Shown: piece after piece, positions 9,493 through 12,035 of the stretch
How the letters are laid out: each line of letters opens with the position of its first letter
Position numbering within the stretch: position 1 is the stretch's first letter
Sequence record: PQ014731.1
DNA from: Escherichia phage VB-EcoM-WM
Reading direction: 5' to 3' (one strand)
DNA length: 64,000 nt
Notes under the pieces: model-generated
The model's input: only the letters and a program-made list of their open reading frames with translations
Database searches by the model: none
Told to the model about the DNA's origin: nothing
Program-made: the position numbers and the translations under genes

Positions 9493-12035
9493 TGCTCTTT
9501 TTCCTACCATAAACGGCCCTACCTGGCAAGTGTAATAATTGACGAGCCATTAATCCCGCACACTGTACAAATATACATGTAAAATAGCTATTGCATAACC
9601 TTTCATTGTGTGGTAGCGGTGCTATTTTTACCCGTTTTCTCTCCCAAAATTGCACGTAATGCAGCTATTGCACAAAATTTAACCTGATGCACATTTTCAG
9701 TATACTGTCAACAATTAAAAACCCTTATAAATCATACACTTACACAAACCAAAAAGCGTGCCCTACGTGAAAAATCGGGTGCAACTATAGCCGACAGATC
9801 TCAGAATCCACGTACGATCACCATTCTATAGCCTGCTAAGTATTTATTCCAACCATAGAATAACGGAATAGTCAATACCTGTACAAAATAATTATTCGTA
9901 TAAACTGCATAACATAAATTTTCTCATGTGTCAACATTTTTCGTAAACAGTCCGAAATTGTCACGATAGGTTACTATAATCAGAGAAATCTTTAGTCGTC
10001 TAATGTTTACTGCACATAACTATACTGACTGGAATCATTAGATGACTAATAGAAAGATAAGAAATAGTTAATAATGTAATTGTTTTACCTGTAACAATAA
10101 GGCAACTATGCAAACGAATGTCATGGCGCGACGGAGTCGCGACATAATATAAAAGCAGTAACAATCACCCCCGTGATAGTTTGTCTGCAATCTATTATTC
10201 AGATCATAGTTGCCTTGTATTTAGTTAATCATGACATAATAAGCAAGGCAACTATAGATCTGCTAATAGTTGCCCTGCTTTTATATTATGTCATAGAAAC
10301 GCCCGAAGGGGTGACCTGGTCACCTGGCATAGCCAGCGAAATATTATTACCTTGCTAATAGTTATCATGCAAACGAATGGCATGGCTGATTATTGGTGTT
10401 GTGATTATTAGTGTAGTAATGATTTGTCTGAAGAGTGTTTCATAGTCAATGGTTAGTTAACTAATTAGTTGTGAGTGAATGGTGCCAGTGTAAACAGTTC
10501 CATATGTTATTACCGTGTCAAAAGTGTCATATTGTGTGACATTGTGTCAGACAAGTTTTTCTCCTCTTTGTCAAGTGCTGCATGGAAAATTTACAATCTG
10601 GTATGGTAGTATTTTTTCGGCCCCGTTTACATTCAGGAGTGTATGTATAATCCTTATGGTGTGGGCGTTTAGACGTCTGGACGGTCAGAAGTCCGCAGGT
10701 TAATAACTAATCTATTGGTTGCTAACTATATCCCCCACAAATAATAAGAAATACAATTGTTATATGCGTAAACAGTAACCCATGTTATCAATCCATGTAT
10801 GTATCGCCAGTGGTGCGCATAATGGGTATTATGTTAAATTGCCCGTAATGATAACGATTCTCACAATGATAAGTATTCTCATTCATCCACACAAAATAGC
10901 TTGCAAATGTTGCGCCACTGTGTGAACGGCCTCGCCTATTAATTTGCCTCACTGCCTTGATATTTGAGAATTGTTATAAGAATGAGAAGTATTCCCATTC
11001 CGTCCGCCTGGCAGCGCTCCTGTAGGTCAGGTCAAAATCGTGGCAGAACTGGACCCCCTTCAGATATTTCTGGCTGACTCTTCAGGTCTGTGTGGGAAAA
11101 GCCAACCTCTCCGGCGGGGCAGGGGGTCTGCATGGCAGATTTCACCTGGAGCGAAACCTCTAAGGGCAGGATTGTGGTCTGCAGGAAAATTGCAGGTCAA
11201 TTAAAAAATTTAGGCGGTGTATGAAGCGCTCTTCAGGCAAGGTGTGGATTATGGGATGAAACCCTCTTCAGGTGATGATATTTGTGGGTGTGATATTTGC
11301 TGGAAAGCCAGATATGACGGGACTCCCGGCGGGGATGGGGTAGTACAGACAGGGAAAATGTGGGGATGTGGTGGGAGTAAATTGATCAGGCAGGTAGGAT
11401 ATGGAATATGTTACAAGTATGTTAAATATAAAGGTAGGATATTTGTAAGATTTGTGTGTAAAATCAAAGACTTAAGTAGTGTTGTGGTATTTTCTATAAA
11501 TAATTCAAGTTTAATAGGTGATATTTGTCTCTATCCACTTTGTGTGGTAACCATATTCTAATTGAATTGGTTTACAAGTGTATATAAAGTATACAAATTA
11601 AAGATACAAGAAACCCCCCTCCCCCTTCGGCTACCATTCACCTTTTCCTCTGACTGGTACTTAAACACTTATTCAGACTCTTCAGGTTATCACCCATATA
11701 CCCTATGGCAGTGACTGGTGTCCTCCGGCCCCTCTTTCGTCACCCGTCCGCTTCGCCATGCTAATGCCATAGCTAACTGTTCGGTTGTTCACCCTGTTCA
11801 CTCAGGTGTATCTCCATACCCTTCAAACCGAAGAGAACAGAAAACCCGAATTACTCGGTAAAAGAAAAGAGAAGAACTTAATTTTATCAGGATAGGCAAG
11901 AATGTCAAGGCATGACTGCTCACTAAACAAGCAAACAGTCATGTGTGGGAGGTAAGTGATTGTGGTGGTAGGAAATTTAGTTGAAAGATGTGTTATAGGC
12001 GCTTCCAGCACTTTAGCCGGGCAGCTAATTGTGTG
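9493..12035. other. ORF-poor region rich in palindromes and short repeats
   Basis: No RBS-preceded ORF; palindromes GGTGACCTGGTCACC (about 10306) and ATGTCATGGCGCGACGGAGTCGCGACAT (about 10118); ATGCAAACGAATG(T/G)CATGGC twice; CTCTTCAGG recurring 11050-11700. Confidence 0.5.

Follow-up and report, generated by a model that had tools for sequence, protein, structure and literature searches.

Which purpose is served by some 2.5 kb of phage DNA in which hardly a gene can be recognized? The question is raised by positions 9493 to 12035 of a 64,000-nucleotide stretch of Escherichia phage VB-EcoM-WM (sequence record PQ014731.1), the whole of which is called the window here. An earlier note, made from the letters alone, had described this tract as a region poor in open reading frames (ORFs) between convergent transcription units and had proposed that it could be a replication origin, a DNA-injection pause region or a source of non-coding RNAs. 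That interpretation was partly supported, and it missed the main identity of the tract, which concerns the physical ends of a linear genome. In all probability the tract is the genome-end region of a Vequintavirus in its joined form, either as a concatemer junction or as a circularized assembly.

About 2.7 kb around the tract matched 121 phage records in BLAST at 86-96% identity, essentially all of them from Vequintavirus (rV5-like coliphages), and on this similarity the source phage is assigned to that genus. The ends of its genome can be read from the records of close relatives. HdK5 and Gotham have exact direct repeats of 459 bp at both ends of their records; the last base of HdK5 maps to window position 10550 and the first base of Gotham to 11008, and the Gotham annotation lists the repeat as repeat_region 1-459 and 136567-137025. 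A sensitive BLAST listing contained ten records that start or stop within the tract. Six of these break exactly at one of the two positions, the break at 10550 being found also in ECP2309 and Pr121LW and that at 11008 also in bov11CS3 and bov25_3. HdK5 and EdH4 had been linearized where most reads ended abruptly, with redundancies of 458 bp (Korf 2019; PMC6563267). For KPP-1, a Mydovirus, a direct terminal repeat (DTR) of 514 bp was confirmed by coverage and by PhageTerm, which classed it as T7-type (PMC9862379). This repeat was placed in a 1.8-kb gene-poor gap between convergent units, and since a gene beside the gap is homologous to the window gene at 7777-8040, the relative orientation of both loci is fixed. 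Furthermore, an IMG/VR contig of 148,842 bp carries a terminal repeat of 519 bp, with the 27-nt core described below at both ends. In the window the repeat is present once. The breaks of the records, the repeats at their ends and the single copy in the window together imply that the tract is the joined form of both genome ends.

The boundaries were also visible in an alignment of the window with 11 relatives, and a 12-genome alignment was the basis for the analysis of codon periodicity given below. Mean pairwise identity is 38.6% at 10388-10537 versus 93% from 10545 onward, and a 50-bp indel hotspot starts 10 nt past 11008. The jump in identity and the hotspot appear to provide independent comparative support for the DTR boundaries. 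Judged from close relatives, in which these boundaries are established, the chromosome in the virion is probably linear and non-permuted, with the 459-bp repeat at either end. The DTR is separated on each side by about 1 kb of non-coding DNA from the last genes of the transcription units, which run towards the ends.

A weak BLAST match between the repeats of the window and of KPP-1 gave the first hint of a common core. A search of IMG/VR with flanking proteins returned only two loci, and a DNA-pattern search was used instead. The degenerate pattern GTGCGNATAANGNGTNTTATGTTAAAT, with 23 fixed bases and a chance count estimated at well below one, retrieved 21 loci on contigs of 44-262 kb, most of them 121-153 kb, and one fragment of 22 kb. 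Three of the loci are 100% identical to PVP-SE1 (Seunavirus), CR3 (Certrevirus) and Av-05 (Avunavirus). The core, which KPP-1 also has, shows no variation across 23 loci that represent at least five genera, and the sequences around it are barely alignable between lineages. Its distance to the right end is 202-215 nt in most lineages, 169 nt in Vequintavirus and 180 nt in one further contig; the distance to the left end is more variable (200-289 nt), and the predicted DTR lengths range from 439 to 519 bp. The core was ruled out as a canonical sigma-70 promoter, because its -35 matches only one to four of six positions across lineages and an extended -10 is absent. A divergent lineage (IMG/VR L020, positions 1200-1500, 262 kb; L035, 44 kb) contains the core twice. 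Each of its copies is preceded by a pair of DnaA-box-like TGTGGATAA, TTGCGA-17-TATTAT is a fair promoter there, and the predicted repeat ends of this lineage do not fit the end rule that is given next.

The sequences at the ends are likewise shared between genera. In the three lineages whose ends are known independently the left ends are alike, beginning with GACAAGTTTTTCTCC..TTGTCAAG, AACACAATTCTCTCTCCTTGTCAAG and AACACTTTTCTATCTTCCTGTCAAG, respectively, and so are the right ends, which finish on CCGTCCGCC, CTGTCCGTC and TTGTCCGTC. KPP-1 keeps the right end GTCCGYC^, as does an IMG/VR contig whose sequence stops at this point. The sequence TGYYA^RRC describes the left end with its outside flank and also the reverse complement of the right end in eight of ten lineages; in the window this reverse complement, CTGCCA^GGCGGAC, matches the left cut site. 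Both ends co-vary, being C/C in Vequintavirus and CR3 and T/T in KPP-1, PVP-SE1 and Av-05. The pairs are TGTCA^GAC with TGCCA^GGC in the window, TGCTA^AAC with TGCTA^GAC in KPP-1 and PVP-SE1, and TGCCT^GGC with TGCCA^GGC in CR3. This suggests that the cut sites are sequence-specific and conserved at both DTR boundaries across genera. Close to the left end, TGTCAAG in the region of the TTGTCAAG box is kept in eight of ten lineages. The promoter-like sequence of this box is doubtful as a promoter, as the last base of its putative -10 varies (T/A/G) within the genus.

The tract sits between convergent transcription units, as had been noted earlier: the gene of the left flank (+ strand) ends at 9451 and that of the right flank (- strand, 12251 to 12036) at 12036. 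At the spot equivalent to the terminator behind the left gene (Table 1), terminators are annotated in Gotham, HdK5 and Murica. The longest ORF within the tract has 114 aa and a GTG start, and the six largest ORFs gave no match to a PHROGs or Pfam family. Variable sites in the flanking genes are distributed over the codon positions as 9/4/41 (p=7e-13) and 24/4/7 (p=5e-6), heavy in the third position, whereas substitutions in the tract showed no 3-periodicity (0 of 20 segments of 240 nt below p=0.066). The comparison with relatives, which the earlier note had itself recommended, thus leaves the non-coding nature standing. The ORFs of the tract are disrupted among relatives by single-base indels, including those in the variable C-run at 11614-11625 and at the C at 11819. 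Curated annotations are empty here, both in rV5, between ORF163 and ORF164, and in a BASEL phage, while the automatic annotation of one relative has up to 14 tiny coding sequences (CDS) across the tract; such disagreement between annotators is typical of non-coding DNA. The earlier statement that no ORF is preceded by a ribosome-binding site was essentially right. One micro-ORF remains open over 35 codons in 12 of 12 genomes, with a weak third-position excess (variable sites 5/3/8). It has no good Shine-Dalgarno sequence, its C-terminus is variable, and an overlapping CDS is annotated in Murica. We conclude that the tract is non-coding, repeat-rich, cis-acting DNA.

That such a tract is unusual in a compact phage genome, as had been claimed, was overstated. 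The homologous stretch of rV5 was drawn as a grey box, "non-coding ... contained no ORFs", and its authors saw a change in GC skew at the box, which they ascribed to the switch in transcription direction (PMC3606486). The same layout occurs in KPP-1, which belongs to another genus (PMC9862379). At the edge of the left arm, rV5 (locus L001, 3199-3618), Murica, navn, CarlMeissner and others have an additional gene of 420 bp (ORF164, 139 aa) after 9458; it is absent from the window phage, HMD-6, PMBT16 and APCEc02, and its homologue in Murica is annotated as 'contains Rel homology domain'. Among the database records, 19 GenBank entries of the MG0656xx series named 'Campylobacter phage' (UNVERIFIED, unannotated) belong to Vequintavirus genomes, with 86-93% identity to this coliphage; mislabelling or contamination is the probable cause.

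Table 1. Features of the genome-end region and its immediate borders (window coordinates).
Feature	Position	Strand	Remarks
Intrinsic terminator of left transcription unit	9464..9482	+	AAGGGGCTTAAGGCCCCTT, then T-run; strong
Left non-coding arm	9493..10549		about 1.06 kb, AT-rich; 28% GC at 9881-10080; mean pairwise identity 89.8%
GC hairpin CGCGAC-GGA-GTCGCG	10127..10141		weakly conserved in CR3-type phages (nhmmer E 0.016-0.08)
Compound inverted repeat	10141..10292		perfect 18-bp outer arms, 10141-10158 and 10275-10292; AGGCAACTAT hairpins inside
Fifth palindrome copy	10353-10367		left arm
Hypervariable zone just outside left DTR end	10388..10537		short repeats GTGTCA and GCATGTAAAC; many indels
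Left end cut site TGTCA^GAC	10545..10552		cut between 10549 and 10550; from HdK5 record end
Direct terminal repeat, 459 bp	10550..11008		single copy in window (collapsed or junction form)
TTGTCAAG box with promoter-like TTGTCA-18-TACAAT	10568..10597	+	19 nt from left end
Invariant DTR core, 27 nt, GTGCGYATAAnGnGTWTTATGTTAAAT	10813..10839		from degenerate-pattern scan
Two tandem 15-bp palindromes	10849..10881		TGATAACGATTCTCA (10849), TGATAAGTATTCTCA (10867); arms conserved, centres variable
Two degenerate palindrome copies	10965..10997		TGAGAATTGTTATAA (10965), TGAGAAGTATTCCCA (10983); in DTR
Right end cut site GTCCGCC^TGGCAG	11002..11014		cut between 11008 and 11009; from Gotham record start
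Right non-coding arm	11009..12035		about 1.03 kb; other genera about 0.1-0.6 kb, KPP-1 0.33 kb
G-rich segment	11050..11400	+ (C-rich on -)	three CTCTTCAGG copies, GGCGGGGCAGGGGG, GGCGGGGATGGGG
CTCTTCAGG copies	11078, 11229, 11264, 11678, 12324, 29549, 36944, 37811	+	five within 1.25 kb in or beside right arm
Possible micro-ORF MKPSSG(D/N)DICGCDICWKARYDGTPGG.GVVQTGK..	11256..~11372	+	35-38 codons; doubtful
Most AT-rich 200 bp of window	11401..11600		25.5% GC, lowest in 64 kb
Genus-specific ultra-conserved block	11588..11987	-	from alignment conservation
G5AG6 run (C6TC5 on +)	11614..11625	-	run length varies between phages
Sigma-70 promoter TTGACA-16-TGaTAAAAT	11908-11881	-	11/12 positions, extended -10; aimed at terminal repeat
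14-bp hairpin directly upstream of -35	11911..11943	-	from sliding-window fold scan

Besides the core and the cut sites, the end region contains an array of short palindromes, the tandem pair of which is annotated as 'repeat_region' in phage navn. The pattern TGAnAAnnnTTnTCA was counted in 21 distinct tracts, one mismatch being allowed in its ten fixed positions. It occurred in 78 copies (1.55 per kb) versus 0.22 per kb in the flanking coding DNA, and dinucleotide-shuffled tracts contained 3.3 +/- 1.9 copies (maximum 8), which corresponds to an enrichment of about 24-fold. All copies lie within -1300 to +200 of the core, that is in the DTR and the left arm, and none in the right arm. An unbiased comparison of 8-mers recovered the same palindrome, together with the core, TGTCAAG and GATATTT. 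At least five genera of Enterobacterales phages have kept the array, both its position and the number of its copies. Within the 64 kb the palindromes cluster at two places only, the tract with its five copies and the intergenic stretch 376-877.

The consensus of the palindromes, TGA(G/T)AAT-N-ATT(C/A)TCA, is near the operator of Fur, the ferric uptake regulator, whose 19-bp consensus is GATAATGATAATCATTATC with the 7-1-7 reading TGATAATnATTATCA (PMC4506495). Fur box and phage palindrome are alike in that the 15-bp palindrome has the same spacing and mostly the same bases; all hosts are Enterobacterales, and the copies of CR3-type phages match 16-17 of the 18 consensus positions. They differ in that no copy in the window reaches 14 of 18 (about 13 of 18 by manual count), that position 4 is often G in the phages (TGAGAAT) with a symmetric C, and that the phage copies are arrayed in a terminal repeat and not over a host-type promoter. 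Matches to the Fur consensus were found at 0.38 per kb in the tracts versus 0.08 per kb outside, and 7-1-7 matching gave 18 matches in the window versus 6.1 expected and 8 versus 0.88 in KPP-1. As a whole, the proposal that host Fur binds the array, with a genome-end function tied to iron status or with Fur being soaked up, and that the core and TGYYA^RRC are the terminase recognition and cut sites of the subfamily, is in our estimation decidedly unlikely. If it were true, packaging, end protection or terminal transcription would be coupled to the iron status of the host; alternatively, hundreds of replicated copies would titrate Fur and de-repress host genes for iron uptake and nucleotide reductase.

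The left arm holds several of the repeats that had been pointed out before. The motif ATGCAAACGAATG(T/G)CATGGC is indeed present twice (10108 and 10367), and the AGGCAACTAT repeats amount to four copies in alternating orientation (10100, 10206, 10246 and 10266), with exact copies nowhere else in the window. Two palindromes had been called perfect. This holds for GGTGACCTGGTCACC (10310-10324), which has 7-bp arms around a central T and is deleted or altered in several relatives; it does not hold for ATGTCATGGCGCGACGGAGTCGCGACAT, in which the 6-bp GC hairpin of Table 1 stands within a longer imperfect palindrome. In CR3-type phages the stem of this hairpin shows a compensatory change from A-T to C-G. 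On either strand, no structure signal of the tract was stronger than that of the compound inverted repeat (z = -9.1 for the fold of single-stranded DNA), and a sliding-window fold scan of the tract brought out only this element and the hairpin at 11911-11943. The inner hairpin of the repeat (10241-10280) is followed by TTTTAT and resembles a bidirectional terminator. The element is 94% conserved, and a terminator is annotated there in Murica. No terminators were found between genes 163 and 164 by the authors of the rV5 genome (PMC3606486); plausibly, the compound inverted repeat is the bidirectional terminator that they expected but did not find. As to the short repeats of the hypervariable zone, the enrichment of GTGTCA over the whole window is only marginal (47 versus 33).

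The right arm comprises the compositional extremes of the window. GC skew reaches its maximum of the 64 kb in the G-rich segment (up to +0.62 at 11321-11520), and GC content is 56.5% at 11001-11200. Three of the top four G4Hunter peaks lie in this arm: numbers 3 and 4 in the G-rich segment, and the highest (-1.84, 11611-11635) at the G5AG6 run. The segment 11138-11187 is missing from most relatives. The CTCTTCAGG repeats mentioned earlier are present in four copies within 11078-11686. In total there are eight copies in 64 kb versus 0.54 expected; irrespective of how the local genes are oriented, every copy is on the + strand. Their reverse complement CTGAAGAG stands at 10428. Sequences similar to it border the repeat of KPP-1 and those of CR3-type phages. 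As a cross-genus motif CTCTTCAGG was rejected, since it was not among the 8-mers common to at least seven of ten lineages. On either side of the AT-rich centre, the G-rich sense is directed towards it; this fits R-loops formed by converging transcripts, and the C-rich sense fits Rho-loading sites that stop transcripts leaving the centre.

At 11588-11880 of the conserved block the mean pairwise identity is 98.4% and 94% of the columns are invariant, versus 92-93% and 67-78% in the flanking genes. The block is kept even in L007, a relative whose neighbouring gene is only 71-75% identical. When five sub-regions were compared with other genera by nhmmer, the right block, the G-rich part and the left arm had no homologue, and the left palindrome block gave a weak match. 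Searches of E. coli genomes with the block and with the palindrome regions gave no meaningful match; for AT-rich queries this short the database is too large. The promoter keeps both hexamers and the TG in the most divergent relative, where its spacer is rewritten (10 of 16 bases changed, 2 nt added); this is good evidence for a real promoter at 11908-11881. No gene lies downstream of it. The hairpin directly upstream could be a stop for the right-hand gene cluster or an operator. At 11819, inside the invariant block, the window lacks one C of a C-run (CCATA-CCCTTC versus CCATACCCCTTC) that is found in 11 of 11 relatives; either the variant is real or an error arose in sequencing the homopolymer.

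The promoter and the block behind it could be accounted for in two ways that were already among the proposals of the earlier note. Known R-loop origins and G-run stops include ColE1 RNA II, T4 oriF and oriG, the primary origin of T7 and mitochondrial CSBII with its G5AG7. The right arm has a comparable succession of promoter, G-rich transcript, G5AG6 run and AT-rich stretch, so that G-rich RNA from 11908-11881 could stall or hybridize at the run and prime DNA synthesis in 11401-11600; such an origin may exist alongside a terminal repeat. The likeness to the known origins is purely compositional, however, and the arrangement is genus-specific. For the origin speak the well-supported promoter, the G-rich sense of its transcript with the top G4Hunter peak of the 64 kb, the lowest-GC 200 bp directly next to it, the symmetry that arises from the G-rich + strand beyond the AT-rich centre, the ultra-conservation of the block and the skew change noted here by the rV5 authors. 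Yet this change coincides with the switch in transcription direction, and the block and the long right arm are missing in other genera with the same replication genes. No initiator repeats stand beside the AT-rich part, the palindromes being all on the other side; the C-rich sense fits Rho-loading (rut) sites equally well; and window positions 328-660, with three iterated repeats of 47 nt and an AT-rich stretch conserved across genera, look more like a classical origin. An R-loop-type origin, for which only the right arm of the tract comes into question, is unlikely in our view. The second possibility, that the block encodes a non-coding RNA, is made conceivable by a supported promoter without a gene downstream, by an identity over 293 nt that exceeds that of the neighbouring genes and by the disruption of its ORFs by indels. 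The RNA would have up to about 280 nt on the - strand, or about 40 C/U-rich nt if it ended at the weak hairpin 11858-11846. An Rfam 15 scan of 8500-13000 at E<=1 gave only three chance-level matches (E 0.37-0.7), far below gathering scores, and none for the RNA itself. Folding of the block was not significant on either strand (z = -1.14 and -0.25; the former is the minimum-free-energy score of 11570-11875 on the - strand), and none of the sliding windows within the predicted transcript (about 11874-11590) is conspicuous. The two windows of the - strand that fall below z = -2.4 (11840-11959 and 11880-11999) owe this to the hairpin that precedes the promoter. The block is complementary to other parts of the window at chance level and nowhere over an extended length, a convincing terminator is not present, and covariation cannot inform this reading because the block is invariant and genus-specific, which also counts against it. 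We regard the RNA as rather unlikely, if slightly less so than the origin.

Two further explanations concern the tract as a whole. In phage T5 an injection-stop signal lies inside a gene-bearing terminal repeat of about 10 kb, with pre-early genes between the signal and the end. The tract resembles this region, as far as general knowledge of T5 goes, in being non-coding and rich in palindromes and repeats near a genome end, and a stop for first-step transfer would pause the entry of the DNA. Here the repeat has only 459 bp and is gene-free, no pre-early region lies outside the site, and both neighbouring units are transcribed towards the ends. The suggestion of an injection pause was thus unsupported, and such a signal is extremely improbable. 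If, on the other hand, the tract consisted of unannotated small or decayed genes instead of a cis-acting region, this would agree with the numerous small CDS of automatic annotation, with the CDS that is annotated with a ribosome-binding site in Murica, with the open 35-codon frame (11256-11360), which has a CxCxxC motif, and with ORF164 as a real extra gene at the left edge in rV5. It is very improbable, since the codon periodicity that is strong in the flanking genes appears nowhere in the tract, the frames lack family matches and are disrupted by indels, and curated annotations are empty. No more than one micro-ORF could be left, which would not explain the conserved DNA elements.

The classical-looking region at the beginning of the window is a second conserved non-coding region (328-990). 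Its three 47-nt direct repeats are spaced by 65-74 bp, with 28% GC at 461-660, and are followed by two modules of about 135 bp, each with the palindrome AATGATAATCRTTCTC (631 and 767) and CAYCYCCGGTGRTTGTCTCCC, and then by TGCMACCTGGCGGGGCC twice. It is conserved in 120 Vequintavirus records and also in Mydovirus-type contigs, at the same distance of about 10.5 kb from the DTR core (nhmmer E 7e-23). In appearance it comes closer to a classical origin, or to an early regulatory hub, than the tract studied here does. A GC-rich module, (AAC)GGGCACCCCCGGTGATTGTCTCCC, occurs in at least three intergenic places, at 659-684 (+), 798-818 (+) and 8715-8745 (-), and partial copies are present in other genera a few kb to the left of the repeat (L030, L036 and L037). 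Elsewhere in the window, a tRNA cluster (Arg, Tyr, Ser, Thr and Met) contains at 55868-55966 a 99-nt tRNA-like gene for which ARAGORN called a four-base anticodon (atcc).

Taking the tract as the joined genome ends, we propose the following course of packaging. As in the T7 or Watson type, neighbouring genomes in the replicating concatemer would share one copy of the repeat at each junction. The terminase would recognize a fixed site and cut at TGTCA^GAC on the left and at GTCCGCC^TGGCA on the right. Both cut sites consist of one motif in inverted orientation, so that the same nuclease can nick one strand at one site and the opposite strand at the other, 459 nt away, and strand-displacement synthesis would then provide a full repeat at each daughter end. 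The best candidate for the recognition site is the core, about 212 nt from the right cut in most genera. The palindromes in the DTR and the left arm may be a binding array for a dimeric protein, encoded by the phage or being host Fur, whereas insulation of the junction from read-through transcription could come from the terminator at 9464, from the compound inverted repeat and from the strongly skewed C-rich stretches. The conserved block with its promoter would be a genus-specific addition, for which junction processing (by analogy with T7 phiOR and the pause at its concatemer junction), an R-loop origin and a small RNA are candidates. The functions suggested for the core, the palindromes and the insulating elements have less support than the steps of nicking and copying, which follow the established T7 or Watson model.

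Several points weigh against this picture. The ends of this phage are deduced from relatives that are 90-96% identical, and the DTR boundaries of PVP-SE1, CR3, Av-05 and several IMG/VR contigs were predicted by alignment only. The rV5 genome was described as circularly permuted (PMC3606486), and in one recent Vequintavirus paper PhageTerm indicated headful packaging with partial permutation, though CheckV flagged a DTR. A transcription regulator would account for the palindrome cluster at 376-877 no worse than a packaging protein would. The roles proposed for core, cut-site motif and palindromes are suggested by sequence comparison, and the packaging model does not account for the ultra-conserved block.

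The best-known counterpart is the concatemer junction of T7 and T3, with its short direct terminal repeat, site-specific terminase cuts and duplication of the repeat; it is reportedly treated in works of Dunn and Studier from 1983, Chung and Hinkle from 1990 and Fujisawa and Morita from 1997. Both systems have an exact short repeat at each end of a non-permuted linear genome, a single copy of it at the junction, fixed cut sites and zones of short repeats beside the repeat. The promoter without a gene that lies upstream of the right-hand repeat and points into the junction is comparable to T7 phiOR, and the relative KPP-1 was placed in the T7 class by PhageTerm. In contrast to T7 and T3, the present phage is a myovirus of 137 kb that uses the host RNA polymerase, and there is no sequence similarity. 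Its repeat has 459 bp versus 160-230 bp, a non-coding arm of about 1 kb stands on each side, both ends are inverted copies of one motif, and both neighbouring gene clusters are transcribed towards the ends and not inwards from the end that enters first. An invariant core throughout a subfamily and a palindrome array are, to our knowledge, not features of T7.

Repeats of Vequintavirinae have been reported before (458 bp in HdK5 and EdH4, PMC6563267; 1-459 in Gotham; 514 bp in KPP-1, PMC9862379), as has the rV5 box (PMC3606486), and these represent the same element at the same mapped coordinates. The reports differ from the present description in giving a length or an empty box only. Since the empty box (2013, PMC3606486) and the 458-bp redundancy (2019, PMC6563267) were published separately, the element itself is known. 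In the open-access literature we found no paper in which the rV5 box is linked to the genome ends or in which the core, the conserved block, the palindrome array or the symmetry and co-variation of the ends is described, and nothing usable on the Vequintavirus transcriptome, Fur boxes in lytic phages or T7 pac sites. New are the 27-nt core, the inverted co-varying cut sites, the palindrome array, the conserved block with its promoter and the compositional extremes of the right arm.

Most of the 121 public Vequintavirus records start at an arbitrary point, present the genome as circular or permuted, or have invented small CDS in the tract. The positions 10550 and 11008, together with TGYYA^RRC and the core pattern, form a simple sequence rule by which the true ends can be placed in any member of the subfamily. 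This is of practical weight, as rV5-like phages serve against E. coli O157 and as members of cocktails, and their rebooting or editing needs correct ends and intact cis-acting packaging signals. The exact formation of terminal repeats has been studied almost only in T7-like podoviruses. The core, the co-varying pair of cut sites and the operator-like array offer handles on this process in a large myovirus.

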